This document shows positions 720 to 25,283 of a stretch of 44,039 nucleotides of DNA, piece after piece. This stretch comes from Actinomycetota bacterium. Its GTDB lineage: Bacteria; Actinomycetota; Acidimicrobiia; Acidimicrobiales; VFJN01. Both the position numbers and the translations under genes were made by a program. How positions within the stretch are numbered: the first letter of the stretch is position 1; each line of letters begins with the position of its first letter. The notes below the pieces were generated by a model, which did not search any database, had not been told where the DNA came from, and saw only the letters and a program-made list of their open reading frames with translations. The stretch spans positions 1 to 44,039 of the forward strand of contig JBKPHT010000012.1 in NCBI GenBank assembly GCA_046730015.1, in the 5' to 3' direction.

Positions 720-2060
720 TCACCCGGCCGCGAGCAGCACGACCGACGTCTGAGGGGCCAAGGTGATCGTGGCTGGCGCTGGCGTGCCATCGATGCGGGT
801 GTAGCCGGCAGGGACCGTGAATGTGGCGCTGCCGATGTCTGGCTCGCGGGTGACGACGATCCCGCCATCGAAGTCCCGGCGGATGAACCCAGCCCAGTCG
901 TAGCGGGCACCTAGCGCGTCACCGAGGTCGAGCTGGAACCCTGCCCAGAAGTTGTCGGGGTTGACGATCTGCCACATCTCGGAGCCGACCATGTCGTTGC
1001 CTTCGGTCACCAGCAGATAGGTCGCCAGGTTGTGTTCGGCCTCCGTCATCGTCGACCCGACGTCGTCGTTCACGATCACGTTCGTGCCTTGGGCGTGGAC
1101 CCGGTCTATGAACGCCAGGAGCGTGCGGTATCCGTATGCGCCACCGGCGTCGAGGCCACCATCGTTGCCACCGTGTTCGATCATGACCCAGTCCGCGGCG
1201 GCGATCTCGCGAGACACGAACGGGTCACCGAAGGCGGTTTGGTCGGCGTACCAGATCGTGTTGTGGACGATCTCGATGCCCGGGAACTCGGCCCGGATCG
1301 CCTCGGTGAACTCGGCGAAGTAGCGCTGCCAGTCCGCCAGCGTCAGCAGCTGACCAGTGTTGGGGTCGAGGATCCGTGACGTGCTCGTGGTGCCGTTCGA
1401 GAACCGGAACACGAGGTTGGTGTCGTCGAGGTAGATGCCGTGGTAGCCGAGATCGACCTTGGCTTGGATCCGGTCGAGGAACCACTGCCGATAGGCAGGG
1501 TTGGAGATGTCGGCGGCGTACTGCGGGCAGGTCCCGCCTGAGCAGCCCCAGTCGATGAACACCTGCCGGCCAGTGTCGAAGTCGGTGAGGATCCATTCGG
1601 GGTGCTGCGCGTATTGGGGCCACGCCGGCTTGATGGCGTAGGCGTCGGTGTATTCGACGGTCCGGTCGTACCAGGTGAGCCGCGAGTCGAAGTAGGGCGA
1701 GTCCACAAGCATCCGGTGGTAGTTGTCCCGCATGAACTGCTTCTGGGCATCGGTGGGGTTGCTGGTCCACGGGTCGAGCGCCGACTTCGGCGTGAAGAAC
1801 TTGACGTCACCCGCGCCCGGCTGGGTTGGTGGTGTCGTAGCGGTCCTGGTCGGCGCGGTCGTGGTCGGGGTCGGGATGGTCGTGGTCGTCACGGGAGTAG
1901 TGGTTGTCGTCGTCGGTGCCGTCGTCGTCGTGGTAGAGACAGTCGCGGTCGTGGTGGGTTTGCGGTGGCGGTGGCCGGGTTTGTGGTGGGCCGCGGCCGG
2001 GGCGATCGCCGCAAGAACCAACAGCGCCAACAGCGCCAGCAGGACACCGGATCGCCTCAT
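720..2060 (-). CDS. Secreted putative glycoside hydrolase (TIM-barrel, 'GHL15'-like) with Thr/Pro-rich linker
   Basis: ATG 2060 follows GGGGAGG; Sec signal (LLALLALLVLAAIAPAAA); Thr-rich linker; motifs HPEWIL, YAADISNP, GIYLDD, IEHG, FIRRDFDGGIV. Confidence 0.75.
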   Translation of the reverse strand: MRRSGVLLALLALLVLAAIAPAAAHHKPGHRHRKPTTTATVSTTTTTAPTTTTTTPVTTTTIPTPTTTAPTRTATTPPTQPGAGDVKFFTPKSALDPWTSNPTDAQKQFMRDNYHRMLVDSPYFDSRLTWYDRTVEYTDAYAIKPAWPQYAQHPEWILTDFDTGRQVFIDWGCSGGTCPQYAADISNPAYRQWFLDRIQAKVDLGYHGIYLDDTNLVFRFSNGTTSTSRILDPNTGQLLTLADWQRYFAEFTEAIRAEFPGIEIVHNTIWYADQTAFGDPFVSREIAAADWVMIEHGGNDGGLDAGGAYGYRTLLAFIDRVHAQGTNVIVNDDVGSTMTEAEHNLATYLLVTEGNDMVGSEMWQIVNPDNFWAGFQLDLGDALGARYDWAGFIRRDFDGGIVVTREPDIGSATFTVPAGYTRIDGTPAPATITLAPQTSVVLLAAG

Positions 2061-2129
2061 GATCGTCGACCTCCCCAGCCCCGCCAACGGCGGATGCTAC
2101 TTCACGGTTCGGTCGCCTGGACCAGGCAC

Positions 2130-2609
2130 GCCGAGCGGTGGCTGCCGGGCCTGCCGGCCGAGGCGACCATCGCGCTGGATGATGTCGCCGGCGCGGTTCG
2201 GGAGGGGCTGCTGGCGTTGAGTTGCTCGGCTGGGCTGTTGGTGATGCCGCAGATCATGGCCGAGGAGATGACGGCGAAGGTCGGTCCGAAGGGCCTGCAC
2301 AGCCGGAGCGGATCGTGACCTGCGCGAGGGGCTTGAGGACATGTTCACAGTGCGCCGCCTCGTGAGCGACCGGCTCGCCCGCTCGCTGTCATGCACCAAC
2401 AGCATCGAGTCGATGATCTCAATCGTGCGGACCACCGCCGGGGTGAAGCGGTGGAAGGACATCCCCACCCAGCGCCGTTCGAGCCGAAGTCGCCTGTCGC
2501 GTCGCCGAAGGCGCCGGCGAGACCGTCACAGCACCGGAGTACGATCAGGCAGCAGCCTGAACCGAAATGGGACCGTCGGCCGAAGTCCCACAACGGTCGG
2601 GACATCCTC
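2130..2609 (+). mobile_element. IS256-family element, internally deleted and frameshifted remnant
   Basis: Fragments DVAGAVREGLLALS...MAEEMTAKVGPKG (N-term), LREGLEDMFTVRRL...LARSLSCTNSIESMISIVR...VKRWKD (C-term) and ETVTAPEYDQAAA*. Probable right end CCGAAGTCCCACAACGGTCGGGACATCCTC. Confidence 0.8.
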
Positions 2610-2903
2610 GGGCTCCCTACCCTGATCGAGAGCTCCTCAAGGAACGCTCCGAGCGTTTCCGTGCCCCAGGCTAAAAGTCGCCATGAGTCTTAGAAGTCAA
2701 TGGTCAGGCCCTGGAGTCAGTTGAACACGAGGCGGTGAGCAAACCAGCCGTCGAGTACGGGGTCGGATCGCGGCCAAGCCAGATGTCGCTCGTTGGCGGA
2801 ACGTCGTCGACTACAATCGCCGTCGTTGTCGAGTCATCCTGGCATCTGGCCAACCGGGGATGGCCCACGGCGACATCGGACTACGCCTCGGATCGGGAGA
2901 CCT

Positions 2904-4292
2904 ATGGTTGCGCAGTCGGCCCTATCTGTGCCCGCGCAGGCCACGCCGAGCCGACTATCCGGCTCCAATGGTTCCGGGATCGCATTTCGCCTGTACCTGC
3001 TGGCAGTCTTCCTGATGCCCCTGCAACTCGAACTGCAGCAGTTCCGGGGTGTCGTCGAGAGCCGACTTCCGCCCGGTGACTTGGTGCTTGTCGCCTCGAT
3101 CCTCCTCGCCCCGACGACCCTGAGGCTGATACGGCATCCGCTCTTCCTGCTGCCCCTATTCCTGCCCGTCGTCCTCGCATTCGGGATGTTGCTCGCCGTC
3201 GTGCAGCGAGGTGATGTGACCCCTCATGCGCTACGCGTGAAGTTCCTTGGCGCGTGGATCCTCGTCGCATGGTGCATCGTCACGGCCGCATATGCCCGTG
3301 CCGGCCACAGCAGAAAGATCCTGCGCGTCTGGGTGATCGGCATGGCAGTGTGGGCCGTGGTCGCCTACATCGACTGGCGGGTCGTCGACCTCATCTCCTT
3401 TCTCGAGTTCGATGAGCCGACACGTTTTGGTGGGATGCAGTTCGACGTGAATAACGCAGGAGCGGCCTACGGCGTCGCAGTCATTGTGCTGTGGCGCATG
3501 GGTGGAGAACTCTTCCGATCGACCGTGGCCCGGACCCTGGCGCTCGCCACCTGTCTCGCGGCCCTGGCGCTCACGCTCTCGCGCGGTTCTTACGTCGCAG
3601 TCGCCGCGGCCGTGATCGTCGTGCTCGCAGTGACCAGGAGCACCGCCAAGAACTGGGCGAGGTACGCAGGCTTCGTTCTGGTGGTGCTGGTGGTCGGGCT
3701 CGCCACAGGGTTCCTCGGCTCCGCGTTGCAGGACTTCGCCAATCGGCCGGACACCGTGTTGGAGCGTGAGGATCTGACCGCGGAGGCGCTGGACTCGTTC
3801 GCCGAGTCGGATGGCCTCGGGATCGGCCTCGGATCCCAGTTGGCCGACACCGACGCTCGGCTCGACGTGAGCCAACAGGAGGGCGGACAGATCGTTCACA
3901 ACACTGCGATCTGGCTCCTGGTTGAGATGTCTGTGGTCGGTATCGTCTTCTTGGCCGCAATGGCCGTACTGCCCATTCAGGTAGCGCTGAGGATGAGAGC
4001 CTTCGACCGCCAGCTGGCATTGGCTCTTCTGGGATCGCAGATCGTGATGCTGGTTGCGTCTATCGGCATCGAAGCGCTGTATCAGCGCCAATGGTGGCTG
4101 ATCATTGGCTTGGCGATGGTGCAGCCGGGCGAGTCCAGGGCAACCGGAGCTCCGCGCGCCGACGCTGACTCAGCGCTTGACGGTGCTCAGTCGGGTCCGA
4201 TGTGGCGGCAACGTGCCGCTAGTACGAGATCAGCCGGCCGACCTTCTACAATTGGCAGCGCCAGTGCGAGGAGTTCGGCGAGGAGGGGTTGA
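2904..4292 (+). CDS. O-antigen ligase / Wzy-polymerase family membrane protein
   Basis: Many hydrophobic segments; motifs RFGG..DVNNAG, LTLSRGSY, GIGLG, HNTAIWLLVE; ATG 2904 follows GGGAGA. Confidence 0.85.
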   Translation: MVAQSALSVPAQATPSRLSGSNGSGIAFRLYLLAVFLMPLQLELQQFRGVVESRLPPGDLVLVASILLAPTTLRLIRHPLFLLPLFLPVVLAFGMLLAVVQRGDVTPHALRVKFLGAWILVAWCIVTAAYARAGHSRKILRVWVIGMAVWAVVAYIDWRVVDLISFLEFDEPTRFGGMQFDVNNAGAAYGVAVIVLWRMGGELFRSTVARTLALATCLAALALTLSRGSYVAVAAAVIVVLAVTRSTAKNWARYAGFVLVVLVVGLATGFLGSALQDFANRPDTVLEREDLTAEALDSFAESDGLGIGLGSQLADTDARLDVSQQEGGQIVHNTAIWLLVEMSVVGIVFLAAMAVLPIQVALRMRAFDRQLALALLGSQIVMLVASIGIEALYQRQWWLIIGLAMVQPGESRATGAPRADADSALDGAQSGPMWRQRAASTRSAGRPSTIGSASARSSARRG

Positions 4293-4367: not shown

Positions 4368-5759
4368 CTACACCACTCGGTGGGACTCACCCCTTTCGGT
4401 GTCGAACTGACGGAGGTCGTTTACAGCCGAGGTCTCCCTTGCGAGAGGAGACTCGGATGGACGAGCGGGAACAGCGGCGCAAGATCCGGCACCGCCCAGC
4501 GGTTGCTTCGAGATGCGGAGCAGGTGTCGGGGAAGCGCGCGGTAACGCCGCCACGTCACCCACGCCCCGAACCAGGTCGCCACCGCCAAACCGAAGGCGC
4601 CGCCGTCGACGCCGGCCAGCTGGAGGCCGACGACTGCTGCCACCCAGGTCGCAAGGGTCCCAACGATCCGAGACTCGAGCGTCTCGGCCGACGCATCCGC
4701 GATCATGAGTCCCACCGCGGGACCGCGCAAGAAGGCGAGCCCCAGGAAGCGTAGGAGGGTCGCGGTGAACAACGCCGCGGTGATGCCGTTGGCCGAGAGC
4801 GCGAAGGGGCCGGAAGGCAACCCCAACGCCTCGACGGCGAGCAGACACCCTGCCCAGCCCAGGGTGATCGCCGACACTCCAGCGATGACCTGCAGCGGGA
4901 TGCGCTTGTCCACCACGTGCACGCCCAGCTTTCTGATCTGGCTGGGTATGGTGATCGCCCCCGCTGTTGTGTTGACGACGCTCAGCGGAGAGAAGACGAC
5001 CACCGCCGCGGCGAGCGCACCGGTCGCCTCGGTGCCGACGATGACTGCGGTCGCGATCAGAGGAACGATGAACACGCTGCGGCTGAGAAGTCCGGCGAAG
5101 CCGTATCGGATGGCCTGCGGACCCGTCGCCAGCCAGAACGTCCTGAGCTGGCGGCGGCCCCGAACCACGCCCGCGCGTATGAGCGGTGCCGCGCTGATGG
5201 TTCCCCCGGCCAGCCAGACGGCGAGATAGGCGGTGGGAGATCCTCGCCAAGGGCTGAGGGCGTCGACGAGCGCGCCGCCGAGCACGACGGCGAGCCAGAT
5301 CGAGTCGGCCCTCAGCACCCCGAGCTGATCGTGGCGGGCGAACCGCAGCCCGCGGAGCGTGTACTGCGACACCAGACCTGGCGTGCCGAATGCGACTAGG
5401 AGCAGTGAGAGTCCGAGCGGGCCGCCGACGACGACTCCGGCGATCGCGATCGGGACGGCCAGGGTCGCGCCAAGTACCAAGGCAGCGCCAGCCGTCCCGT
5501 CGCTGAGAGATTGGCGCTCTGCATCAGCGAGTTCACGCGACCCCTGGATGAGCGCTGCCGAACCTGTGGACGCTTCCCCTATCGACACCATGACGAGACC
5601 GAGTTGGTAGGCGATGGAGAACCGCCCGAACTCCGCGAGGTTGCCTGATGAGAGCGCGAGCGCTGCGGCCGCGAAGTTCGTGATGCTCGCCGTTCCCTGC
5701 GCAGCGGCCGCGAGTAACCACGCCCGCGAGGGCCTCGTCTTCCGAGTGAACTGTCTCAC
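4368..5759 (-). CDS. Polysaccharide flippase (Wzx-like)
   Basis: Polytopic membrane protein; QGTASITNF...EFGRFS N-terminal pattern, YTLRGLRFA, GALAAA...FSPL; polysaccharide-cluster context. Confidence 0.75.
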   Translation of the reverse strand: MRQFTRKTRPSRAWLLAAAAQGTASITNFAAAALALSSGNLAEFGRFSIAYQLGLVMVSIGEASTGSAALIQGSRELADAERQSLSDGTAGAALVLGATLAVPIAIAGVVVGGPLGLSLLLVAFGTPGLVSQYTLRGLRFARHDQLGVLRADSIWLAVVLGGALVDALSPWRGSPTAYLAVWLAGGTISAAPLIRAGVVRGRRQLRTFWLATGPQAIRYGFAGLLSRSVFIVPLIATAVIVGTEATGALAAAVVVFSPLSVVNTTAGAITIPSQIRKLGVHVVDKRIPLQVIAGVSAITLGWAGCLLAVEALGLPSGPFALSANGITAALFTATLLRFLGLAFLRGPAVGLMIADASAETLESRIVGTLATWVAAVVGLQLAGVDGGAFGLAVATWFGAWVTWRRYRALPRHLLRISKQPLGGAGSCAAVPARPSESPLARETSAVNDLRQFDTERGESHRVV

Positions 5760-6259: not shown

Positions 6260-8383
6260 CTATTGGTTGGCGGCGACGGAGGAGTGTTCACGGCCTCCTA
6301 ACTGCCAGTCGCACGTCGCTGTCGACGTCGTCGACAGCGACGTCGTCGGGCTTGTGCCGTTGATGGCAACGGGCTGAGGGCCGCGGCTCCTGACGTGTGA
6401 TGCATCGCGCATTGCCCGTGCGGACCGGAAGATCGCCAGGAACTCGTCCGCCACCTTGTCCACCGACCACTCGGCACGGGTCAACTGGGCTCGATGGGCA
6501 CGTTCGACGCTTGGACGATCAGGAAGCGTCGACGTCGTCGCAGCAGCGACGACGTCGTGCACGGAGTCGCAGACCGCTCCCATGTTCAGCGATACCGCCT
6601 CGCTACCGCCGACGTCGGTCGTGAACACCGGCAATCCTGTTGCCATGGCTTCAAGAATGACGAGACTGAATCCTTCTCCGAGAGAGGCCACTACAAGGGT
6701 GTCGGCGGCACCCATGAGCCGTGGGATGTCACGACACCATCCGGCGACTTCGACGCGACTGCCCCCTTCCTGCTCGACACGAGCTCGCTCGGGACCGTCG
6801 CCGACGAAGACCAGCCGGTTGCCCTCGGGTGCGCAATCACGCCAACACCGCGCCAGCGCAACTTGGTTCTTGCGGTGGCTGAGCTCGCCGACGCAGAGGT
6901 GGACCCGCTCGTACGGCGCCCAACCGCGAGCGGCGCGGATCTGCTGCCGCTCCTCGTCGTCGAGTGACCGGAACCCGGTGAGGTCGACGACGGGCCGCAC
7001 CTGTGTGCTGGACCGGCCGGAGGGAGCATCGTGCTCCTCGTGAGTGCTCAGCGTGAGGAGCAGGTCGGTTCGGGGATCGAGCATCCGCTCGACGAGACGA
7101 ACGATGCGAGCCCCCGCCGCGGTTCGAGCGGAGAGATGCCCCCAACCGTGAGGCTGGTAGATCAGCGGGACATCGAGGTGACGCAGGCGCGCTGCGATCC
7201 CTGCGAATGTCGCATGCGCATGGACGAGATCGATGCGCTTCGAGTCGATGAGGCGTCTGATCTCCGCGGCGATCCGGTAGGCGTCGACCGGACGACGACG
7301 CCAGTGCCGGCAGGTCAGAGAGTCCGCCCAGGCGTCGAATGGCCACGGCTCGGTGCCTTGCCCAGCGTCCGCCGCCGCGGCGGCGAGTACATGCTGTTCG
7401 ACTCCACGGTCTGCCAGCGCCCGTCCGAGCGCATCGACGTACGCCGGAACGCCGGCGATTCGCGGCTCGAGAACGTGCAGCACCCGCATGCCGGTCGCCG
7501 GTTGCATGTCGGTTGCCTTCGCCGCATCCGGATTGGGACCAACGACCTCGACGGTCTGACTTCCTGGGTCGGATCGCTCTGATCGACAGGATGGCGCATC
7601 GCGAGATCCGTTCAGGCGGATGACGGCTGGCGCCGCAGTATCGTTGCTCTCTTCGGGCTCGTCGTTCTTTCTGGTGCGGCCCAGCAGAACGGCGAAGGTC
7701 CGCAGCACGATCGCCAGGTCGCGCCGAAATGTCAGGTCACCGACGTACTCCTCATCCATTTGGACGTTGAGGTGCACGAAACCATCGCGGTTCTCGGAGA
7801 CCTGCCATGCGCCCGTCATGCCGGACCGGACCATGTGGCGGGGATGGTCGATGAGATCGAACGCCGCTGCGACCTCGGGCAGTTCGGGCCGGGGGCCAAC
7901 CAGACTCATGTCGCCCTTCAGGACGTTCCACAATTGCGGCAACTCGTCAAGGGCGGAGCGACGGATGAATCTGCCGAAGGGCGTGTGGCGGAGGCTGTCG
8001 TCGGCTGCGTGGAACCGACTCGCTCCAGCAACGTCGTCGGGCACGGCCGACTCGGGCAGCATCGAGCGGAACTTGTACATCGTGAAGGGCCGGCGCCCCC
8101 TGGTGAGCCGCACCTGGCGGAAGATGACGGGAGGCCCCATCGTCACACGGACGCCCACCGCGACAGCGAGCATGAGAGGCGTCGTCAGCAGGAGCAGGAT
8201 TGCCGAACCGACGATGTCAACAGGACGCTTGACATACCTCTCGTATCGGGTCCCGCGACGCTCGGTCGGTTCGAGGCCGTGGGCCTGCTCGTGCGGTGTG
8301 CGATGCGTTAGAACTATCGATACGCGACGATCGGCATGGCCGAACAACAACGTCCACGCTGCATTGCCCTGTGTCCCACCCAC
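6260..8383 (-). CDS. Priming phosphoglycosyl transferase fused to a GT4 glycosyltransferase (true start probably somewhat downstream of 8383)
   Basis: N-domain KRPVD...FRQVR...KFRSM...LDELPQLWNVLKGDMSLVGPRP; C-domain VHAH, VGELSHRKN, EGFSLVILEAMATGLPV. Confidence 0.92.
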   Translation of the reverse strand: MGGTQGNAAWTLLFGHADRRVSIVLTHRTPHEQAHGLEPTERRGTRYERYVKRPVDIVGSAILLLLTTPLMLAVAVGVRVTMGPPVIFRQVRLTRGRRPFTMYKFRSMLPESAVPDDVAGASRFHAADDSLRHTPFGRFIRRSALDELPQLWNVLKGDMSLVGPRPELPEVAAAFDLIDHPRHMVRSGMTGAWQVSENRDGFVHLNVQMDEEYVGDLTFRRDLAIVLRTFAVLLGRTRKNDEPEESNDTAAPAVIRLNGSRDAPSCRSERSDPGSQTVEVVGPNPDAAKATDMQPATGMRVLHVLEPRIAGVPAYVDALGRALADRGVEQHVLAAAAADAGQGTEPWPFDAWADSLTCRHWRRRPVDAYRIAAEIRRLIDSKRIDLVHAHATFAGIAARLRHLDVPLIYQPHGWGHLSARTAAGARIVRLVERMLDPRTDLLLTLSTHEEHDAPSGRSSTQVRPVVDLTGFRSLDDEERQQIRAARGWAPYERVHLCVGELSHRKNQVALARCWRDCAPEGNRLVFVGDGPERARVEQEGGSRVEVAGWCRDIPRLMGAADTLVVASLGEGFSLVILEAMATGLPVFTTDVGGSEAVSLNMGAVCDSVHDVVAAATTSTLPDRPSVERAHRAQLTRAEWSVDKVADEFLAIFRSARAMRDASHVRSRGPQPVAINGTSPTTSLSTTSTATCDWQLGGREHSSVAANQ

Positions 8384-10590: not shown

Positions 10591-10631
10591 GCCGCGCCCG
10601 TCGTGCCGACCATCTGAGAGACGAGCTGCCA

Positions 10632-13819: not shown

Positions 13820-13825
13820 CATCAA

Positions 13826-15958: not shown

Positions 15959-15965
15959 CCCCGGC

Positions 15966-17213: not shown

Positions 17214-17246
17214 TGCGTGCCAGTCCCGTCGTCGCCGGCCACGGGC

Positions 17247-18044
17247 TTACCGACGTCCTTCCTTGGCGACGATGGCTGGGAACAGCTCGTTCCGGATGTA
17301 GGCATAGTCGTCGGCCGTGTCGCACTCGGCGTACGCGAGACCCGCAGGGACCTGAGCGGAGACCATGCGCCGCAATGTCAGGCAGTACTGCCACAGTTCC
17401 TCGTGCTCCGACTGCGACTTGGCGAATCCGTAGGCAGGGCTCTCGTCGGGCCATCCGGTGAGCCATCGCGCGATTCCCTGGACGAACTCCCGGTCCTCGG
17501 CGGCCACGTGGATGATGCCGAGGCTCTCTCCGAGAAGGTCGAGACCAGCCGTCAGTAGAGGAGACAACCCTTTACCGATCAGGACGGGGTGCTCGTGTCC
17601 GTGCCCGTAGACCCTCACTTCCTCGTCGTCGCCCGAGACCTGAGGAGCGAGGAACAGGCAGCTCCGGCCACACGACCCGATCACCGACTCCAGCAGCGTG
17701 CGCTCGTAGACGATGTCGGCGTCGGTGATCAGCAGTCCACCATCGTGACAAGCTGCGGCGCGAAGGCCGCAGAGCAGGCTCAACGTCGATCCGGTCGTCG
17801 ACGTGTCGAACGTGTTGACGACGAGCTCGACGCCCTCCAGATGCTGAGCGCTGTCGACATTCCCCTCACTCAGCACGACCAGCACCTCGTCGACGCCGCA
17901 GTTCCGAAGGATGCCGACGTGCCGCCCCAGAAAGGTCGGCCCACCCTCCTGGTGGGACAGCGGAAGGAGCGACTTCGGCACCGACGGCCGTCCGAGCCGC
18001 CGCCCGATCCCCGCAGCGAGGACGACAGCCGTCAGCCCGCCCAT
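17247..18044 (-). CDS. Stand-alone nucleotidyltransferase (LicC/PntC-like cytidylyltransferase)
   Basis: VLAAGIGRRLG..PKSL, DADIVY, DDEEVRV, GESLG, ECDTADD. Confidence 0.88.
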   Translation of the reverse strand: MGGLTAVVLAAGIGRRLGRPSVPKSLLPLSHQEGGPTFLGRHVGILRNCGVDEVLVVLSEGNVDSAQHLEGVELVVNTFDTSTTGSTLSLLCGLRAAACHDGGLLITDADIVYERTLLESVIGSCGRSCLFLAPQVSGDDEEVRVYGHGHEHPVLIGKGLSPLLTAGLDLLGESLGIIHVAAEDREFVQGIARWLTGWPDESPAYGFAKSQSEHEELWQYCLTLRRMVSAQVPAGLAYAECDTADDYAYIRNELFPAIVAKEGRR

Positions 18045-18057
18045 GCGACCGTGCTCC

Positions 18058-19203: not shown

Positions 19204-19216
19204 GGGTCTCGCTCTA

Positions 19217-20581
19217 TCAACCGGAACGGCAGGGGTGCCGGTGGGGCCCGCCCCCCCGGGTCCCAGTCCTGGTTGCCGCTGTGGTCGTCGGTGCCGATGT
19301 CGCGTCAGGATGTGTGAGCACGATCGCTTCACGGTCGCCGAGCGTGACCGAGGTGACGCGCTGTCCCGATGGCGTCCGCATCGGCGCATCGAGCCGGATC
19401 GTGACCCGGTCCCCGCCGGGTTCGTTCAGGAGAACGATGCCCTCGGTGAAGTCGCGGCGAATGAGGTTCTCGTCAACGTAGCGGGGGCCCAGCGCACGCC
19501 CCAGGTTCGTGGTGAAGCCGCTCCAGAAGCCAGGGGGGCTGATGAGGTCCCAGTCCTCGGTGCTGACGAGATCGTGGCCGTTACTCGCGAGCAGGCCTGC
19601 AGCGAGATTGAACCACTGTTCCTTGATCGTGGAGGCCGTTTCGTCCAGCAGCAGCACGTTGGCTCCGAGCGCATGCACGCTGTCGATGTAATCGAGGAAC
19701 GTCCGCATTCCAAATCTGCTCGTGCCCTTGACGAGTCCCGGATCTGTGGCACCGCGCTCAAGCATCAAGTAGTCAGCGGCGGCAATCTGCCGCGACAGGT
19801 AAGGGTTGTCGTTCTGAGGAGGCTCGGCGTACCAGATGACGTTGTGCATGATCTTCAGATCAGGAAATGCTGATCTGATCATCTCGACGAACTCTGCCAT
19901 GTAGCGCTGCCAGTCCTCGAGGGTTAGACCGGCACCGGTTCGCGGGTCGATCGGCGCGATGTCGTCTCCCTTTTGGTCGCTGAAACGCCAGTCGAGGTTC
20001 ACGTCGTCCAGCATCAAGCCCGGATATCCGCGTCGCACGAGCGTGGCGATGTCGTCGAGCATCGCCTGCCGGAATTCCGGGTTGCCGACATCAGCGGCGT
20101 ATTGTGGACAGCGGTTCGTGCAGCCGAACGGTATGTAGACGGGGTCACCGTCTGCGTCTCTCAGGATCCACTCGGGGTGCTTGATGGACCTGGTGTCCTG
20201 CGAGGTGTTGACCTTGATGGAATAGGCATTCCGCGAAACAAACACGCGGTTGAAATCGTCGAGACGCGAGTCCCAGTAGGGCTCCCACACCACCATGCTG
20301 TCGTAGGTCTTGTTCATCCAGGACCAATAGCGCCCTGCGGTCCATTGATCGAATTCGGACTTGGCGTTGACCAGAACACCCATGCGGCCCTCGTCGTCGC
20401 TTTCACCGAGAGTCGTCGCGCCGGCGCCTGGGCTGTCCGACCCGACGGTCGACGGATCAGCGTGATCGACCCCGACATGGCCGGCGGTGCCCTCTTCCGG
20501 CTCGGCTCGGCCCGATCCGCAGGCTGTCAGTCCGAGTACCGCGAGGAGAAGACCCGTTAGGGTCGGTCGAACTGTCCGCAC
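19217..20581 (-). CDS. Putative glycoside hydrolase lipoprotein, paralogue of 720-2060
   Basis: Lipobox-like LLLAVLGLTA-C; shared motifs HPEWIL, GC...CPQYAAD, LDD.NL, DWQRY.AEF, HN.IWYA, IRRDF..GIV; start approximate. Confidence 0.75.
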   Translation of the reverse strand: MRTVRPTLTGLLLAVLGLTACGSGRAEPEEGTAGHVGVDHADPSTVGSDSPGAGATTLGESDDEGRMGVLVNAKSEFDQWTAGRYWSWMNKTYDSMVVWEPYWDSRLDDFNRVFVSRNAYSIKVNTSQDTRSIKHPEWILRDADGDPVYIPFGCTNRCPQYAADVGNPEFRQAMLDDIATLVRRGYPGLMLDDVNLDWRFSDQKGDDIAPIDPRTGAGLTLEDWQRYMAEFVEMIRSAFPDLKIMHNVIWYAEPPQNDNPYLSRQIAAADYLMLERGATDPGLVKGTSRFGMRTFLDYIDSVHALGANVLLLDETASTIKEQWFNLAAGLLASNGHDLVSTEDWDLISPPGFWSGFTTNLGRALGPRYVDENLIRRDFTEGIVLLNEPGGDRVTIRLDAPMRTPSGQRVTSVTLGDREAIVLTHPDATSAPTTTAATRTGTRGGGPHRHPCRSG

Positions 20582-20722: not shown

Positions 20723-21251
20723 TGTTCCTCTCATAGAGGTTGGTGACGCGGTAGGGGTCCACCAACGCGAAGACCTCCGGTTGTAGGTGTGCAGGTGTCC
20801 AAGCCAGCACCTCCCAGAGGTCCTCGTGAGCCACCGTAACGACCCGCTGACCCCGCAGGGACGACTGCTGTTGTGTCGCCGGATCGAGGCCGGCACCCCG
20901 ATTGCGCATGTGGCCGCAGCGGTGGGGATCTCGCGCCGTGCGCGTCGAAGTGGTGGCATCGTTACCTCGAGCTGGGCACGCACGGTGTCTGTGACCGCTC
21001 CAGTCGCCCGCGGCGCTCGCCCCGGCGGGGTCGCCGAGCGGGTCGAGGCCAAGATCTGCTGGCATCGCCGGGTTGAGAAGGTCGGCCCGGACCGTTTGGC
21101 GATCCATCTCGACCTGCCGGCCTCGACGATCTACCGGGTCTTGGTCCGCCACGACCTCAACCGGCTCTCCCACATGGACCGCCCCACCGCGGCGCCGATC
21201 CGCCGCTACGAACCGTCCCGGCCCGGCGAACTGGTCCATGTCGACATGAAG
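20723..21251 (+). mobile_element. IS481-family element, frameshifted and 3'-truncated
   Basis: Left end TGTTCCTCTCATAGAGGTTGGTGAC; transposase from GTG 20826 (SHRN.PLTPQGR); CASKWWHRY...DRSSRP lies in another frame; ends at RYE..RPGELVHVDMK, so most of the DDE domain is missing. Confidence 0.9.
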
Positions 21252-21304
21252 AGTGAATCGGCCGTACGCGGTGGTACCGTCGGTCCTCCGACGGAGTAGA
21301 TGAC

Positions 21305-22948
21305 GTGACCGACGGCGACGACCTCCATCTCGACGATTATCTCGGCATCGCCCGCCGTCGTTGGCGTTGGCTGGTCACGGTGCCGGTAGCGAGCCTAGCG
21401 CTCGGAGCGCTGTTCAGCATTACGCGCGAAAGGGTCTATGAGGCCAAGACCGAGGTCCTCATCCTCACCGATTCGTCAAGATCTCTCTTCTCGGCCAGTC
21501 CAGCAATGGCTGAGCGCTTCGGCCGAAACCCGGTGAGCGAGCTGCAGTATCTCTCTAGCGACGAGTTTCGCGAATCGGTCGCTCCGGTGGAACCGGGTTT
21601 CGACGTCGACTACGAGCTCGTAGTGACGAATGCTGGACAGGACGATTTGGACAGCGATCTCCTCGCCTTCACTGCACGGGGTCCGGACGCCGCTAAGGCC
21701 GCCGGCATCGCAACTCGCTATGCGGAGACCTACATCTCCGAACGTCATGACCACGACGTCGAGGCCAACGCAAGGAGCCGAGAACGGGCCACCGCGCGTC
21801 TCGACGCGCTCGAGCAAGAGCTAGTTGGGGCCCAGGACAAGATCGCCGGATCGCGTCAGGAACTCGGGGACGCAAACGATGAGCAGCAGAGCGCTGCGCT
21901 TGCTGTCGCCGAACAGGAATTCCTAACGCGCTCGCAGGTCCTCACCGGTGCTATCGAGGACACGCGCCAAGAGCTGGCGACATCGATCCAGCTCGAGACA
22001 GAGCTGGACGAACCCAACGCCCTCGCCCGTATCATCAACGACGCGGCGATACCGTCGGCGCCAAGCGCCCCCAACGTGTCACGTAACATGATTCTGGCCT
22101 TGGTCGCGGGACTGGTCGTGGGAGTCGGCGCGGCCGTCAGCCGGGACCTGTTCGATCGCAAGGCGCGTGACGGCGTTGCCCTGGCACGAGAACTCGATGT
22201 CCCGTTGCTCGGTGAGATCCGTCATCGAGAGGGTCGGAGACCTGTGGTAAACGGCGGATCTCATGCGGACGGCGACGACTTCGAACCCTATCGAGGCGTC
22301 TCCAACTCCATCTGGCTGAACAGCCCTGAGGAAGCTCCTCGGACCTTAGCGATCACCTCCGAACGACCGACGTCAGGACGGACCACTGCTGCGGTCAGGC
22401 TCGCGCAGCTCGAGGCATCTCGCGGTCTGGACGTGTTGATCGTGGACGCTGACACGCTCGATCCTTCAGTTGCCGGCCGACTTGGCCTGCAGCGACCGAA
22501 CATCCAACTCGGCGAGGCCATGGAGCCCTCGGCCGACGCGCCCGGCATGATCGACGCCCAGCCGGGGATCGCGGCCGGGACCGTCCAAACCGGAACTCCG
22601 CGGTTGGATTATGCCGAGGTCTCCGGGGATCGCTTCGAGCACGACCTCCGCTCTGGAGCGTTCCATGATCTGGTGAAAGACATCCGGGTACTATATGACC
22701 TCGTGGTCTTCGATATACCTGCAGTTCACGGTGGTCGAGATCCGCGGCCGGCGGCCGGAGTGGTCGACGCCACAATCCTCACGTACGATCCGTCCGTCTC
22801 GCGTACTGTGGACGTCAAGAACTCGATCGAATCCCTTCGTGAGGCCCGAGTCAACGTCATCGGGCTCGTCTCGATTGAGGTGGGGCGCCGGAAGGGAATC
22901 AGCGCTAGGTTCCGTCAAGCGCGCCGCAGTATCGGGAGGCGCTCCTGA
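21305..22948 (+). CDS. Polysaccharide co-polymerase / Wzc-like protein (Wzz domain + coiled coil + degenerate BY-kinase domain)
   Basis: LDDYLGIARRRW + TM, coiled coil, PSAPN..RN + TM, LDVPLLG, ITSERPTSGRTT, IVDAD, YDLVVFDIP. Confidence 0.88.
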   Translation: MTDGDDLHLDDYLGIARRRWRWLVTVPVASLALGALFSITRERVYEAKTEVLILTDSSRSLFSASPAMAERFGRNPVSELQYLSSDEFRESVAPVEPGFDVDYELVVTNAGQDDLDSDLLAFTARGPDAAKAAGIATRYAETYISERHDHDVEANARSRERATARLDALEQELVGAQDKIAGSRQELGDANDEQQSAALAVAEQEFLTRSQVLTGAIEDTRQELATSIQLETELDEPNALARIINDAAIPSAPSAPNVSRNMILALVAGLVVGVGAAVSRDLFDRKARDGVALARELDVPLLGEIRHREGRRPVVNGGSHADGDDFEPYRGVSNSIWLNSPEEAPRTLAITSERPTSGRTTAAVRLAQLEASRGLDVLIVDADTLDPSVAGRLGLQRPNIQLGEAMEPSADAPGMIDAQPGIAAGTVQTGTPRLDYAEVSGDRFEHDLRSGAFHDLVKDIRVLYDLVVFDIPAVHGGRDPRPAAGVVDATILTYDPSVSRTVDVKNSIESLREARVNVIGLVSIEVGRRKGISARFRQARRSIGRRS

Positions 22949-23175
22949 CGTCGCGGTAGGGGTCGCCCAGGGCCCAGCCGTGCTCGGCGGCGGCCTGCTC
23001 GTTATCGGCGTGCTGCTCCTCGGGCGACCGCTCGCGGCCGCTCTTGTCGACGCTGATGCGAGGTACTCCCGGGCGGTCGTCGAGGTCGTGGGGCTCGTGG
23101 CGGCGGTTGCCGTGGTGGTGGTCCTCATGGCCAGGACCGCACCACGCCGGCGAGAAGGACGACGGCTCGGTCGAC

Positions 23176-24069
23176 CTACGAGTCCCGGCGGGCCTTGGGG
23201 GCCGCCGTCCGTACCGCGTCACCGGGTTCTGCACTCTGGGCTGCCGGCGCTGACCGACCGCCGCGAGCCCGGCCTTCTCTTTCTGCCCAATAGCGCGACC
23301 ATCGCCGCTTGAATGACTCCACGTATCGCCGGATCCCCCGTGGTCTCAGCTGTATGACTTTGGGAACCAGTCCGGCGCAGCGCATTTTGTGAATGGTCGC
23401 TTGGTGATCATAGGGCAACTCCCGGTACGCAATCGTCTGACGCTCTGCGTCGAACACGGCGTAGCGAGCCAGCGGTTTTCCGTCGCGCGACTGCCCGACG
23501 GCTCCTGGGTTCACGACATGGGCTATGCCCGGGGTCAACGGCAGCTCGGTCGTTGAACGAACCAGCGAGAAGCCCCGTTCGCGGGAATAGACCGCGGCGT
23601 GATGGGTGTGCCCACACACAAGCATCATGGCACGCGGCCAGCGCTCCTCCAGCTGTCGCAGCGCGCTTTCGGCCCTGACCGTATCGCTGACGTAGGTATC
23701 GGCATTGTCGAGATTGCCGTGACAGACAACGACATGGGGAGTCGCCTCCAGCCATGGAGGCAGCGAGTCAAGGAATGCCCTCGCCCCGGGAGACAGGTTC
23801 TGCCTCGTCCACAGCGCCGCGGTGATCCCGGAATGGACACATCGGGAGAAATCCCGTCGACCGAGGACCATCTCGTCGTGGTTGCCCATGACGCACGGCA
23901 CACCAATCGACCGCAGTCGGTCGATGCACGCCTCCGGATCGGGACCGTAGCCCACGACATCTCCAGCGCACACGATCCTCGCGTCCGGGCTGCGCTCGTC
24001 GATGTCTGCGATCACGGCTTCCAGCGCCTCGAGGTTACCGTGGACGTCCGCGATCAGTGCGAGTCTCAC
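23176..24069 (-). CDS. Calcineurin-like metallophosphoesterase
   Basis: DVHGN, GDVVGYG, GNHD, HG, GHTH, NPGAVGQSRD; GTGA overlap with the upstream ATP-grasp gene. Confidence 0.92.
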   Translation of the reverse strand: MRLALIADVHGNLEALEAVIADIDERSPDARIVCAGDVVGYGPDPEACIDRLRSIGVPCVMGNHDEMVLGRRDFSRCVHSGITAALWTRQNLSPGARAFLDSLPPWLEATPHVVVCHGNLDNADTYVSDTVRAESALRQLEERWPRAMMLVCGHTHHAAVYSRERGFSLVRSTTELPLTPGIAHVVNPGAVGQSRDGKPLARYAVFDAERQTIAYRELPYDHQATIHKMRCAGLVPKVIQLRPRGIRRYVESFKRRWSRYWAEREGRARGGRSAPAAQSAEPGDAVRTAAPKARRDS

Positions 24070-25283
24070 GGGAGGTCAACCACCATCCGACGGTCCTTGG
24101 GGAACATCCTCGTGAGCAGTCGGGTCACGTCCGCAATCATCGGCATGGGATCGCTGATCTGGAAGCCTTCGTTGACGTCGACCGTCAACATCTCGAACAC
24201 CCATCGGGCTCGCGAGAGTTGCCCGGACGCGTGGTACTCACCAAATGCCCTGGCATCGGACATCGGAGCCATCCAGCGGACCCCCTTCTTCGCGGACTTC
24301 ATCGGCTCGACCGTTTCCGGTTCGACACAGTCCCAGAACACTGCCTCCGGGATGCCGACGCCGGCCACGGTCGCTGGATGGTGCCAGAGGTTGAACCGGG
24401 GATTGATCTCGAGCATGTACAGCCGGTTGTCACGTCTGTCCCGCTTGAAGTCGATCTTGAGGACCCCCGAGAAACCGAGGTTCGCGACCGTCGCTCTTCC
24501 GAGGTCTCGGACTTCCCGGTCGTCCGTGATCTCGACATAGGTGGACCTGCCGTAGACCTTCGGCGCGGTGCGGATCTTGCGCCCCGTGAACTCGGCGACG
24601 ATCTCGCCGCTCGGGCGCACGTAGGCGTGGTAGCTGAGAATGTTCTCCTCGCCGCCCTCCACGGATGCTTGGATCAGGAAGCGCGCATTCGAGGCCTCGA
24701 TCTTCGGCAAAAGGCCTTCGAGCTCGCCTCGCGTCTCGATGTGCAGGGCTTTCTGATACCTGCCGATGAACTCGTACCAGTTCTCGGCGCGCCTCGCGGG
24801 CTTGCACACACAGGGGAAGCGGTCCCACTGTTGCAGGGCCTTCGATGCGCCGGCGCCGAGGGGGACGGCCAAGGTATCCGGAACGAGCAGATCGTGCCTC
24901 CTGGCCAGCGCGAAGAACCGCACCTTGTCGGTGAGATCCTCCACCAGCTCGGCGCTGGGCAGCACGAAGCGAAAATGAGGAGCCAGTCTCTCCCGGGCGC
25001 GGGAGATAGCCACCAGGTCGTGATCGCCCTGATAGAAGAGCACGGGAAGCGAGGCTTGCTGCCTGGCCCACTCGATGATCGCCGTCACCGCAGCTTCTGG
25101 TTCACGGAACCAGCTCGGCGTCTTCACCACGATCCGGCAATACCGGGATCGGAGGCACTTCGCGTCGCCATCGCTGGTCGCCACGGCCACGGGCAGCTTC
25201 CGGATCCCCAATGCGCGCACCAGGCTGATGTCGCCGACGACGCAGGCATAGGGAGCTGTGCGAGCGCGAGATCGACTGTTCAT
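24066..25283 (-). CDS. Second ATP-grasp carboxylate-amine ligase
   Basis: SRYC, DKVRF, FPCVCKP, RKIRTAP..YGRST, KIDFKRD, LEINPRF; start at MNSRSR chosen over the low-complexity 5' extension. Confidence 0.88.
   Translation of the reverse strand: MNSRSRARTAPYACVVGDISLVRALGIRKLPVAVATSDGDAKCLRSRYCRIVVKTPSWFREPEAAVTAIIEWARQQASLPVLFYQGDHDLVAISRARERLAPHFRFVLPSAELVEDLTDKVRFFALARRHDLLVPDTLAVPLGAGASKALQQWDRFPCVCKPARRAENWYEFIGRYQKALHIETRGELEGLLPKIEASNARFLIQASVEGGEENILSYHAYVRPSGEIVAEFTGRKIRTAPKVYGRSTYVEITDDREVRDLGRATVANLGFSGVLKIDFKRDRRDNRLYMLEINPRFNLWHHPATVAGVGIPEAVFWDCVEPETVEPMKSAKKGVRWMAPMSDARAFGEYHASGQLSRARWVFEMLTVDVNEGFQISDPMPMIADVTRLLTRMFPKDRRMVVDLP

Follow-up and report, generated by a model that had tools for sequence, protein, structure and literature searches.

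A most likely acquired locus of a soil actinobacterium, predicted to build a phosphonate-decorated surface glycan

The locus described here probably builds a Wzx/Wzy-type surface glycan that would be decorated with phosphonate by a TagF-like enzyme with serine in place of the catalytic histidine, a product deduced from gene content. It lies in a window of 44,039 nucleotides (the whole stretch of DNA analysed) from a host represented only by metagenome-assembled genomes (MAGs), in keeping with the little-studied lineage suspected in a first-pass annotation. The genes named there were all recovered, at or near the positions given (Table 1), and the close linkage of phosphonate and glycan-assembly genes stands.

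Origin and gene order of the locus

The segment 707-26313 is most likely a horizontally acquired locus in a soil actinobacterium, as had been proposed. This is indicated by the drop of both GC (65.5% versus 74% for the genome) and GC3 across the phosphonate/glycan segment, the tRNA-Lys gene and integrase remnant, the presence of this PepM in only 1 of 24 same-genus genomes (the sister-genome comparison suggested earlier as a check), the finding of the TagF-like gene in 0 of 400 other Actinomycetota sampled, and the closest outside copy being that of a Planctomycetota MAG (PepM, 79%). The integrase remnant is 53-58% identical to residues ~8-100 of frames of 452-534 aa in same-genus genomes; two of these, scanned as ORFs of 449 and 496 aa, matched PF00589 with 24.8 and 32.5 bits (cut-off 27.1), and each has a tRNA gene a few hundred bases upstream. 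Searches found neither a phage match for the remnant nor an att repeat at the far end of the island. The borders proposed earlier, 720 and 25283, coincide with genuine gene ends (a stop codon and an ATG start) and the tRNA-Lys is present, but the segment shared with the related genome G022 is wider, 707-26313. Its last gene (79% nucleotide identity to G022, as far as 26313) had no family match in Pfam, NCBIfam or further profile scans.

A 7-kb block (12146-19206) is collinear in loci L129 and L130, and both its ends are present in G022, on contigs that break inside it; around it, the order of the glycan genes is shuffled while their adjacency is kept. In the Planctomycetota MAG, one contig end carries MTase-X-ATP-grasp and PepM-NTase-Ppd-DH, and an end of another contig PGT with NT2-TagF-like; NT2 and the TagF-like gene are neighbours in two phyla. 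The glycan priming enzyme adjoins phosphonate genes in three arrangements (window, L129 and G443), and in L129 the MTase-X-ATP-grasp genes are missing between PGT and PepM. Packing is tight: 13 bp separate GHL15b from AEPT, another 13 bp AEPT from NT2, and 33 bp NT2 from the TagF-like gene. Exported GHL15 genes share an operon with AEPT, and no reading frame is broken.

Table 1. Features of the locus and its borders (positions in the window).
Feature	Position	Strand	Evidence
tRNA-Lys (anticodon CTT)	1..76	+	ARAGORN; Rfam RF00005 63 bits; very start of contig C12
Tyrosine integrase, truncated N-terminus, ~100 aa	156..497	+	phrog_1 integrase E=1.1e-3
GHL15-family glycoside-hydrolase-like protein, exported, Thr/Pro-rich linker	720..2060	-	PF14885 37.8 bits; ATG at 2060
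Wzy-like polymerase / O-antigen-ligase family membrane protein	2793..4292	+	PF04932 (Wzy_C) 54.2 bits; 10 hydrophobic segments
Probable Wzx-like (MOP) flippase, divergent	4368..5759	-	At least 8 hydrophobic segments
PGT: priming polyprenyl-phosphate glycosyl-1-phosphate transferase fused to GT4	6260..8383	-	PF02397 179.9 bits (residues 52-234); PF13692 and PF00534 (residues 479-608)
MTase: SAM-dependent methyltransferase	8543..9352	-	PF13489, PF08241; frame set by 59% identity to L050; ATG at 9352 overlaps protein X stop
Protein X: NDK-like N-terminal, nucleotidyltransferase-like C-terminal domain	9349..10590	-	Predicted model, pLDDT 90.2
ATP-grasp ligase 1	10632..11951	-	PF13549 E=1.4e-4, NF009402 E=1.7e-9 (both sub-cut-off); 62% identity to L050
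PepM: PEP mutase fused to PF12804 nucleotidyltransferase, PntC-type architecture	12143..13819	+	TIGR02320 385.3 bits vs 319.55; PF12804 54.4 bits
Ppd-DH: phosphonopyruvate decarboxylase fused to phosphoglycerate-dehydrogenase-like D-2-hydroxyacid dehydrogenase (short)	13826..15958	+	TIGR03297 408.5 vs 312.5 bits
TagF-like phosphotransferase, Ser-for-His444 subfamily	15966..17213	-	PF04464 178.9 bits
NT2: second nucleotidyltransferase, MobA-like	17247..18044	-	PF12804 63.3 bits; NF038362 'Sden_1164 family' 281.3 vs cut-off 300
AEPT: 2-aminoethylphosphonate:pyruvate transaminase (PhnW/AepZ)	18058..19203	-	TIGR02326 481.5 vs 400.8 bits; TIGR03301 434.3 vs 360.8; ATG at 19203
GHL15b: GHL15-family hydrolase-like predicted lipoprotein	19217..20581	-	PF14885 52.1 bits; GTG at 20581
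Small ORF, uncertain gene	20787..21299	+	Weak helix-turn-helix match PF02796 E=8.6e-4, under cut-off; GC3 0.80
Wzc-like polysaccharide co-polymerase, degenerate BY-kinase-like P-loop domain	21305..22948	+	Wzz, GNVR, CbiA, TIGR01007, all sub-cut-off
Calcineurin-like metallophosphoesterase	23176..24069	-	PF12850 68.2 bits
ATP-grasp ligase 2, paralogue of ligase 1	24066..25283	-	PF15632 E=3.7e-6 (sub-cut-off); NF009402 E=1.8e-11; 26-28% identity to ligase-1 orthologues
Thr/Pro/Gly-rich membrane-anchored protein, last gene in G022-shared segment	25734..26354	-	One hydrophobic segment

Phosphonate enzymes and the TagF-like transferase

PepM (Ppm motif at residue 124), Ppd and AEPT all exceed their NCBIfam equivalog cut-offs, and would form, in turn, phosphonopyruvate, phosphonoacetaldehyde and 2-aminoethylphosphonate (AEP), steps supported by sequence; since Ppd and AEPT are retained, AEP should clearly be made. 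By analogy with PntC enzymes, the PepM-fused nucleotidyltransferase (NTase) would yield CMP-AEP: fusion of PF12804 to Ppm is described as the commonest Ppm architecture (~33%), and two such fusion enzymes make CMP-AEP (Rice et al. 2019, PMC6697681). The locus resembles the Pnt pathway of that study in its PepM-PF12804 fusion, adjacent Ppd and AEPT, second NTase close by and glycan neighbours. The downstream enzymes named for that pathway are, however, LicD-like phosphotransferases or glycosyltransferases, whereas the window has a TagF-like enzyme and no LicD, and the words 'TagF', 'glycerophosphotransferase' and 'dehydrogenase' are absent from the main text of that paper (PMC6697681).

The dehydrogenase domain (DH) of the Ppd fusion matches PF00389 and PF02826 (the latter with 190.8 bits), as well as TIGR01327 at 267 bits, under the cut-off of 454. 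Its nearest PDB entry is 1wwk (E=2.4e-65), in alignment to which the Arg, His and Glu positions are kept, as read by eye. The linker retains the dehydrogenase's own Met (RRRMKILVV), and the fusion is rare: of the best 120 clusters in a listing from a collection of 5.8 billion proteins, 16 have it. As a close mimic of phosphoglycerate dehydrogenase (PGDH), DH may convert phosphonopyruvate into phosphonolactate, the reduction also proposed for VlpB (PF02826), the putative phosphonopyruvate reductase of valinophos biosynthesis (Li and Horsman 2022). Compared by description only, both are 2-Hacid_dh_C-family dehydrogenases encoded beside PepM, but VlpB belongs to a 'pre-Ppd' branch in which Ppd is unneeded, whereas the window has the domain as part of a Ppd fusion, along with AEPT. 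NT2, which is 58% identical to the product of a gene that immediately precedes the TagF-like gene in G443, would activate phosphonolactate, and together with DH it points to a second phosphonate besides AEP.

Neither a LicD-like nor a CDP-alcohol transferase turned up in the locus, so the transferase role falls by elimination to the TagF-like enzyme, which would pass a CMP-activated phosphonyl group to a sugar hydroxyl and release CMP. TagF performs the same chemistry with CDP-glycerol as donor. The enzyme has the PF04464 fold and K-x-H-P histidine in common with TagF/TarF/TarL, Cps3D and Bcs3, and its expected donor is likewise a CMP-linked phospho-type group from which CMP leaves. It differs at the catalytic base: His444, reported for TagF to be both invariant and catalytic, aligns with Ser135, and this serine is found in all 121 members of the subfamily, within a W-S-G-x-P-x-K motif (121/121). 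The Ser-type subfamily spans multiple phyla, with 72 positions at least 97% conserved. Scores of the window enzyme against NCBIfam TarF, TarL and TarB (85, 63 and 33 bits) are far under the cut-offs (550, 1000 and 500), and the genes sit with phosphonate genes instead of those for CDP-glycerol or CDP-ribitol. Of 160 Ppd neighbourhoods, 15 contain TagF-like genes, and 10 of the top 120 standalone-DH clusters match a Ser-type TagF-like cluster (among the top 120) in exact longest-contig size, from which equal sizes we infer their co-location.

Glycan assembly and tailoring genes

In the proposed assembly route, the PGT-GT4 fusion would prime the glycan, the Wzx-like protein would flip it, and Wzy would polymerise it together with a kinase-dead co-polymerase. 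The two exported GHL15 proteins may trim or release it. The earlier label 'Wzx' is favoured by hydrophobic segments, by Atlas neighbours (at 0.99, with PF01943/PF13440 on 19-34% of members) and by a weak tblastx match (42% over 50 aa) to a Polysacc_synt/MatE ORF of L050, but a Pfam/NCBIfam scan gave nothing at E<=0.01. 'Wzc-like' agrees with the sub-threshold matches, but the G-x4-G-K-[ST] motif (TSGRTT instead) and the C-terminal tyrosines are absent; the protein, with hydrophobic segments at residues 21 and 258, looks kinase-dead. The locus holds one glycosyltransferase (GT) besides the priming enzyme. The two hydrolase-like genes are indeed predicted to be exported, the N-terminus of the first, MRRSGVLLALLALLVLAAIAPAAA, reading by eye as a Sec-type signal peptide and LLLAVLGLTAC in the second as a lipobox.

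The MTase, protein X, both ATP-grasp ligases and the metallophosphoesterase would tailor the phosphonate or the sugar. In 4 of 160 loci, homologues of the metallophosphoesterase (25-28% identity) are encoded shortly after Ppd. Protein X matches no Pfam family. In its predicted model, residues 1-145 superpose on nucleoside diphosphate kinase (NDK; Z 10.3-11.5, sequence identity 11-21%) and residues 163-363 match NTase folds (Z 5.3-7.5), with middling matches to the Pol-beta-type enzymes MenT1, TM1012, TglT, ANT(2'') and LnuA (Z 5.8-7.5); unlike either group, it is a two-domain protein without a Pfam model. It has 905 representatives at E<=1e-3, with His116 invariant in 61 sequences, its identity to L050 is 47% over 304 aa (tblastx) and 44% over 413 aa (tblastn), and the domain is elsewhere fused to kinase-like or methyltransferase domains.

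Proposed product and alternatives

The scheme first put forward, in which PepM, Ppd and AepZ make AEP for PntC-type activation and TagF-like transfer, holds for the AEP enzymes, but the plain route from AEP through CMP-AEP to transfer is probably incomplete: DH and NT2 suggest a second phosphonate, and the catalytic His is missing from the TagF-like enzyme. It would be odd for a dehydrogenase to rival its fused partner for phosphonopyruvate, and DH could instead act on phosphonoacetaldehyde or a non-phosphonate substrate. The weak Wzx assignment, the missing Walker lysine of the Wzc-like protein, the single non-priming GT and the lack of MTase-X-ATP-grasp between PGT and PepM in L129 were also counted against the phosphonate-decorated glycan.

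It is unlikely that the product is teichoic-acid-like instead of a simply decorated glycan, with DH making phosphonolactate, NT2 making CMP-phosphonolactate as a CDP-glycerol analogue, the TagF-like enzyme adding one or many phosphonolactyl units via the 2-hydroxyl, the neighbouring carboxylate replacing the His base, and ATP-grasp ligases joining AEP as an amide. Phosphonopyruvate should mimic the keto-acid substrate of PGDH, which DH resembles, and VlpB-type PF02826 enzymes are a proposed phosphonolactate branch point (Li and Horsman 2022); the pairing of NT2 with the TagF-like gene in two phyla, the conservation of the remaining site around the His444-to-Ser change and the apparent co-location with standalone DH agree with this. 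However, no description of CMP-phosphonolactate or of such a polymer was found in the literature examined, the TagF-like protein is short (415 aa) and without the extra N-terminal domain ascribed to polymerases in the TarL paper, and AEP would clearly also be made. We consider unlikely a small diffusible molecule or phosphonopeptide, in which ATP-grasp ligases would join AEP or phosphonolactate to amino acids before methylation, the polysaccharide locus being an unrelated neighbour. The locus has two such ligases and a methyltransferase, AEP cores between two ATP-grasp ligases are taken as possible peptide producers (Li and Horsman 2022), and L129 shows MTase-X-ATP-grasp to be separable from the core block; but neither an exporter nor an NRPS or self-resistance gene was seen in the locus, the TagF-like enzyme and two NTases suit macromolecule tailoring, and the adjoining priming enzyme and the operon of GHL15 with AEPT also speak against it.

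Reduction of phosphonoacetaldehyde by DH to 2-hydroxyethylphosphonate (HEP), with a glycan carrying NT2-activated HEP and AEP as in the Stackebrandtia exopolysaccharide, is very unlikely. Phosphonoacetaldehyde lacks the 2-oxo-acid carboxylate that D-2-hydroxyacid dehydrogenases bind. The known phosphonoacetaldehyde reductases are Fe-ADH (PF00465) enzymes (Li and Horsman 2022), although fusions mostly join consecutive steps, phosphonoacetaldehyde is the Ppd product, and a HEP conjugate of an actinobacterial exopolysaccharide is in print. That the locus is a silent, decaying relic of an old insertion is barely plausible: the integrase is cut, the att repeat is absent and the Walker motif is degenerate, but the biosynthetic frames are all open, nucleotide identity to G022 is 84-93%, similar to the core flanks (87-88%), and the locus occurs in 14 runs (12 coded studies) that carry the label soil metagenome or metagenome. 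Four soil metatranscriptome runs had short contigs on pepM-ppd/DH and other genes which, without a DNA carry-over control, are only a hint of expression.

Characterised phosphonoglycans include Bacteroides fragilis polysaccharide B, with AEP (Li and Horsman 2022), and the exopolysaccharides of Stackebrandtia nassauensis and Glycomyces, with a HEP conjugate (Yu et al. 2014, via Li and Horsman 2022). The proposed glycan would similarly be a polysaccharide outside the cell that bears phosphonate, and Actinomycetota account for two of these producers, but the cluster of Stackebrandtia belongs to the PhpC (Fe-ADH) type. The window has AEPT and a PGDH-like dehydrogenase, and its PepM is only 37-41% identical to the two named Actinomycetota copies among the loci fetched. 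The predicted polymer chemistry had not been matched to a described one in the first-pass annotation; some of the enzymes are rare or variant, but nucleotide-activated phosphonate tailoring of glycans is a known kind of system. Because PntC-type activation and phosphonoglycans, including actinobacterial ones, are already in print, what is new is the variant enzymes rather than the system itself: a rare Ppd-DH fusion, a Ser-type TagF-like subfamily spanning several phyla, and the conserved, unannotated NDK-like and NTase-like protein X.

Setting and distribution of the low-GC segment

The phosphonate and glycan genes of the window, which is contig C12 of a host assembly of 5.0 Mb (465 contigs, 93.6% complete), lie in a segment (707-26313) with a GC content of 65.5%, versus 74.0% over 26314-44039. 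Mean third-position GC differs likewise (0.79 over the 16 genes of the segment versus 0.95 over the 11 genes of the right part). The right part encodes a WhiB-domain ORF, a DisA-like cyclase, PhaC, an ABC transporter and a two-component system, and is an ordinary high-GC actinobacterial set. At the left border, the product of the integrase remnant shares 53-58% identity with the first part of 452-534-aa frames at three same-genus loci, all just downstream of a tRNA gene. Two of these frames, scanned as ORFs of 449 and 496 aa, scored 24.8 and 32.5 bits with Phage_integrase (cut-off 27.1). The remnant had no phage match, and an Rfam scan of the window gave no match besides the tRNA.

Among sister genomes, a comparison proposed by the first-pass annotation, this PepM was present in one of 24 from the same genus (G022, 95%), and the remaining 23 gave weak matches to the PepM-NTase query, nearly all in the NTase domain. 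At E<=1e-60, the TagF-like gene was found in none of 400 other Actinomycetota genomes (249 genera). Within the fetched loci, the window PepM was 79% identical to a Planctomycetota copy, 70% to that of Anabaena lutea and 37-41% to two named Actinomycetota copies. The drop in GC and GC3, the tRNA-Lys gene with its integrase remnant and the patchy distribution bear out the earlier claim of a foreign, acquired locus.

A clean, recent insertion is nevertheless disfavoured. The window shares with tRNA-linked genomic islands a border tRNA and an adjacent, here truncated, integrase, but lacks a repeat at the far border: with up to three mismatches allowed, the 3' end of the tRNA matched only the tRNA itself, and the repeat families shown for the window included none of this kind. 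The same segment occurs in G022 on four contigs at 84-93% nucleotide identity, with different DNA on both sides (a right flank with tRNA-Arg and tRNA-His; a left flank corresponding to contig C96 of the host assembly, 95%). Since the core flanks are similarly diverged (87-88%), the segment is probably older than the split between the host and G022. The position of the tRNA at a contig end and the MAG-type nature of the assemblies also weigh against the clean, recent event. The last 1.1 kb of contig C96 (L041 9976-11044) matches neither G022 nor the window, and a DUF3089 split over two frames there suggests a frameshift or a pseudogene.

The first gene past the low-GC segment (26362-27846, + strand) carries AHSA1/SRPBCC and DUF2461 in a single frame behind an N-terminus whose sequence reads as an ArsR-type HTH. 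Relatives of its product occur in seven of 27 same-genus genomes, in the AHSA1 part only (39-47% identity); because they match only residues 31-197, a synteny test through this gene could define no empty site. A 513-aa ankyrin-repeat protein (28342-29883, + strand) lies inside a 77% GC stretch and adjoins a TfoX_N-domain gene (27853-28227); neither gene had a counterpart in G022 by DNA search. Further right, a 437-aa ORF with a WhiB domain at its C-terminal end (42245-43558, - strand) overlaps on the opposite strand the DACNK-DAC gene for the DisA-like diadenylate cyclase (42840-43925, + strand), and is probably over-extended.

Phosphonate core and glycan-assembly genes

Features of the left border and of the phosphonate-glycan segment, with their best supporting matches (L050 is a locus of the Planctomycetota MAG G443)
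Feature	Position	Strand	Evidence
tRNA-Lys(CTT)	1-76		Opens the window, at contig end
Integrase remnant	156-497		N-terminal ~100 residues of a tyrosine integrase, truncated
Wzy_C protein	2793-4292		PF04932, 54.2 bits (cut-off 31.7)
Priming glycosylphosphotransferase (PGT) fused to GT4	6260-8383		PF02397, 179.9 bits
Methyltransferase	8543-9352		59% identity to L050
Protein X, 413 aa	9349-10590	-	L050: 47% over 304 aa (tblastx), 44% over 413 aa (tblastn)
ATP-grasp 1	10632-11951		62% identity to L050
PepM fused to PF12804 NTase	12143-13819		TIGR02320, 385.3 bits (cut-off 319.55)
Ppd fused to D-2-hydroxyacid dehydrogenase (DH)	13826-15958		TIGR03297, 408.5 bits (cut-off 312.5)
TagF-like protein	15966-17213		PF04464, 178.9 bits (cut-off 22.1), positions 8-365 of 367
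Second MobA-like nucleotidyltransferase (NT2)	17247-18044		PF12804; NF038362, 281 bits, just below cut-off 300
AEP transaminase (AEPT)	18058-19203		TIGR02326, 481.5 bits (cut-off 400.8); TIGR03301, 434.3 bits (cut-off 360.8)

PepM, which scored 387.8 bits with TIGR02320 in the genome search, carries at residue 124 the EDKXXXXXNS motif that, according to the main text of Rice 2019 (PMC6697681), sets Ppm apart from other isocitrate-lyase-family proteins. Its PF12804 domain spans residues 312-433; the same main text gives this fusion as the commonest Ppm architecture (~33% of Ppm proteins) and reports that two such Ppm-fused NTases make CMP-AEP. With PF12804 fused to Ppm and a second PF12804 protein nearby, the window would by domain content belong with the PntC type, a further mark of which is CTP-dependent activation of AEP in preference to phosphocholine. 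Li and Horsman 2022 already describe, in their main text, AEP cores that have a second PntC as well as cores with ATP-grasp ligases on their flanks. The Ppd half of the neighbouring fusion has both TPP domains (PF02776 and PF02775).

The 7-kb block 12146-19206 (PepM-NTase, Ppd-DH, TagF-like, NT2 and AEPT) is collinear in two closely related JGI metagenome loci (L129 and L130), and G022 has both of its ends (to 15948 and from 17897), its contigs breaking inside. The glycan genes around the block are inverted or reordered among relatives, and in L129 the PGT-GT4 gene directly adjoins PepM, without the methyltransferase, protein X and ATP-grasp genes. Two observations concern phosphonate genes elsewhere. 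In a Promethearchaeota MAG (L062), four TagF-like paralogues, all with the catalytic histidine, surround a Ppd-AEPT core; in the Planctomycetota MAG, a Ser/Thr kinase with TPR repeats and a 1366-aa PKD-repeat protein lie near the phosphonate genes (L050 71-2746, + strand; L211 8438-12538, - strand).

Pfam and NCBIfam scans bore out the genes named in the first-pass annotation, although its 'Wzx' and 'Wzc-like' labels proved weaker than it implied. The window has the priming enzyme and the Wzy-type protein of Wzx/Wzy-dependent assembly. The 'Wzx' protein (4368-5759) matched no Pfam or NCBIfam model, and its label comes from its hydrophobic segments, from Atlas neighbours in which only 19-34% of the members carry Polysacc_synt, and from a weak 50-residue tblastx match. 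In the 'Wzc-like' protein all family matches fell below cut-off; it differs from Wzc/BY-kinase co-polymerases in having no G-x4-G-K-[ST] motif, with TSGRTT where the Walker A lysine is expected, and no tyrosine in its last 60 residues, where these have a tyrosine cluster. Two GHL15 proteins have N-termini read by eye as a Sec signal and lipobox.

The gene observation behind the proposed phosphonoglycan locus was upheld; the product is a predicted one. To judge from gene content, an acquired phosphonoglycan locus in an actinobacterial lineage represented by MAGs only is the best reading and on balance a probable one. The system is of a known kind; its novelty lies in a subfamily of TagF-like enzymes with serine in place of TagF His444 (hereafter Ser-type), in the joining of Ppd to a dehydrogenase, and in protein X.

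The Ppd-dehydrogenase fusion and protein X

When 5.8 billion proteins were searched and the best 120 clusters examined, all four domains were present at >=98% coverage in 16 (58-100% identity), every one from metagenomes or MAGs; the other 104 comprised one DH-only fragment and otherwise standalone Ppd. By this sequence count the fusion is rare. Of the 80 loci retained from GTDB species genomes, only two have a match that extends past the Ppd half: a G022 contig, and L050, in which the ppd and dehydrogenase genes are distinct and overlap by 4 bases. The same holds for only two of the 80 retained from JGI metagenomes (L129 and L130, 86% and 93%). The linker keeps the dehydrogenase's own start methionine, which fits a fusion that arose when ppd lost its stop codon. 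Of the best 120 matches listed for this domain, 119 were standalone dehydrogenases (56-67% identity), which are thus plentiful.

The closest solved relatives of the dehydrogenase domain are short D-3-phosphoglycerate dehydrogenases (1wwk, E 2.4e-65), but it falls short of the SerA equivalog, a full-length type with C-terminal regulatory domains (TIGR01327, 267 bits against a cut-off of 454, over model positions 1-299 of 525 only). With the VlpB type of Li and Horsman's classifier, as set out in their main text, the window shares a PF02826 dehydrogenase (190.8 bits) in a Ppm neighbourhood; PF02826 enzymes such as VlpB are proposed there as a Ppd-free branch from phosphonopyruvate to phosphonolactate (Li and Horsman 2022). 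That branch acts before, and without, Ppd, whereas the window enzyme is fused to Ppd in one 710-aa frame. The terms 'phosphoglycerate dehydrogenase' and '2-hydroxyacid' are absent from the main text of Li and Horsman 2022, and 'dehydrogenase' from that of Rice 2019 (PMC6697681).

As phosphonopyruvate closely mimics the keto-acid substrate of phosphoglycerate dehydrogenases, we tentatively favour its reduction to phosphonolactate, at a little under an even chance. Reduction of phosphonoacetaldehyde to 2-hydroxyethylphosphonate (HEP) seems unlikely, and other roles take the remainder. A lack of AEPT in the Planctomycetota MAG would have pointed to HEP and was ruled out, as the gene scores above cut-off on another contig; its neighbours there have no Pfam matches, and its presence speaks neither for nor against HEP.

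Overlapping ORFs at 8.4-12 kb were sorted by translated comparison with L050, which also placed protein X between the methyltransferase and ATP-grasp 1; the segment further encodes a second ATP-grasp paralogue and a metallophosphoesterase. Protein X has no Pfam family, and its own family numbers 905 representatives at E<=1e-3 and 128 at E<=1e-30 (P0242-P0391 among the proteins noted). In a confident model built from 61 sequences (pLDDT 90.2, pTM 0.89), the N-terminal domain is predicted to have the NDK fold: residues 1-145 align structurally with nucleoside diphosphate kinases at Z 10.3-11.5 and an rmsd of 2.3-3.2 for 111-129 residues (Foldseek E ~1e-3). Residues 163-363 resemble Pol-beta-type nucleotidyltransferases to a middling degree (Z 5.3-7.5). 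His116 does not vary across the family and may correspond to the catalytic phospho-histidine of NDK. Among 33 longer members scanned, 15 carry protein-kinase/APH/Kdo-kinase-like domains (one of them also GT2), seven methyltransferases, one a polysaccharide deacetylase and two TPR only, and in eight nothing was recognised; one X-methyltransferase fusion (44% identity) mirrors the adjacent gene pair of the window. Our guess is that protein X handles nucleotides or phosphoryl groups in glycan or phosphonate tailoring.

In four of 160 Ppd neighbourhoods (L148, L194, L106 and L105; Bacteroidales-type), the gene immediately downstream of Ppd encodes a metallophosphoesterase that shares 25-28% identity with the 23176-24069 product. 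Such an enzyme may recur alongside phosphonate pathways for reasons yet to be explained.

A Ser-type TagF-like enzyme and its possible role

The TagF-like protein has the PF04464 fold of CDP-polyol phosphotransferases without their invariant His444: in the PDB alignment its Ser135 stands at this position (W-H-G in the wild-type entry 3l7i, W-N-G in 3l7j). The TarL paper describes an 'invariant histidine' that deprotonates the acceptor hydroxyl, and the equivalent H300N mutant was used to inactivate TarL (PMC10901376). We aligned the window protein with its 120 best homologues (47-92% identity). All 121 sequences read W-S-G-x-P-x-K, and 72 positions were conserved in >=97%. His279 of a K-x-H-P motif is likewise present in every one of the 121; it lines up with the histidine of 'mHpf' in TarL and of 'mHyl' in TagF, and we take it to be TagF His584. 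Named members come from MAGs of Planctomycetota, Gemmatimonadota/Gemmatimonadales, Longimicrobiales, Acidimicrobiia and Gammaproteobacteria. TagF-like genes lie near Ppd in 15 of 160 loci, and the histidine is retained in each of the 16 alignment rows drawn from 13 further Ppd neighbourhoods with such genes (23-33% identity); the window enzyme is therefore part of a distinct subfamily under constraint, whose active site has been remodelled.

Ser-type and phosphonate genes were seen together directly in the window, L129 and L130, and in the Planctomycetota MAG G443, where one contig ends in NT2 (58%) and the TagF-like gene (62%), and a second one in PepM-NTase, Ppd and DH. In G022 the Ser-type gene was not recovered, its contigs breaking inside the block. 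Longest contigs of identical size, which suggest but do not prove the same contig, link Ser-type clusters to four fusion clusters and one standalone Ppd, and to 10 of the top 120 standalone dehydrogenases. Among 400 sampled Planctomycetota genomes, no further Ser-type context besides G443 was found, so a phosphonate link for the whole subfamily rests on two directly seen lineages and these size coincidences. A literature search over main texts found no link between the TagF family and phosphonates; PEP mutase was paired with a TagF, PF04464 or CDP-glycerol-type term only in an iron-stimulon study.

Ser-type enzymes, NT2 and the PGDH-like dehydrogenase could conceivably form the transfer arm of a widespread, undescribed phosphonate-tailoring module, a reading that we consider rather improbable. 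The dehydrogenase would supply phosphonolactate, NT2 would convert it to CMP-phosphonolactate, a C-P counterpart of CDP-glycerol, and the Ser-type enzyme would use this to substitute surface glycans or to build a polymer on them. If so, teichoic-acid-like C-P material would be expected in soil Actinomycetota, Planctomycetota and other phyla.

Fourteen runs with the label soil metagenome or metagenome, which come from 12 coded studies, contained the block at >=82% of sampled words; one of these runs may be the source sample. Four soil metatranscriptome runs (four coded studies) held short contigs on the locus (151-373 bp, 1-21 differing letters), and pepM to ppd/DH was covered in all four; with DNA carry-over possible and no silent control stretch, this is only a hint of transcription. 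Bins without RNA-library contigs in all four runs include 8788-9434, 16552-17198 and 18493-19139, holes that prove nothing. One RNA-library contig (run X20) joins 11697 in ATP-grasp 1 to 24438 in ATP-grasp 2 with 23 other letters between, and probably either stems from a relative in which the genes are ordered differently or is chimeric between these paralogues.

The locus provides a concrete candidate for the transfer step, a large and strongly conserved TagF-like subfamily that has serine for the catalytic histidine and that is linked, in two phyla, with phosphonate genes and a dedicated NTase. It also points to a second phosphonate branch, in which a PGDH-like reductase is joined to Ppd, and to a family of NDK/NTase-like proteins that lacks annotation. 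Since the block is nearly unchanged across these runs and studies, the locus may add to the pool of C-P compounds in soil.
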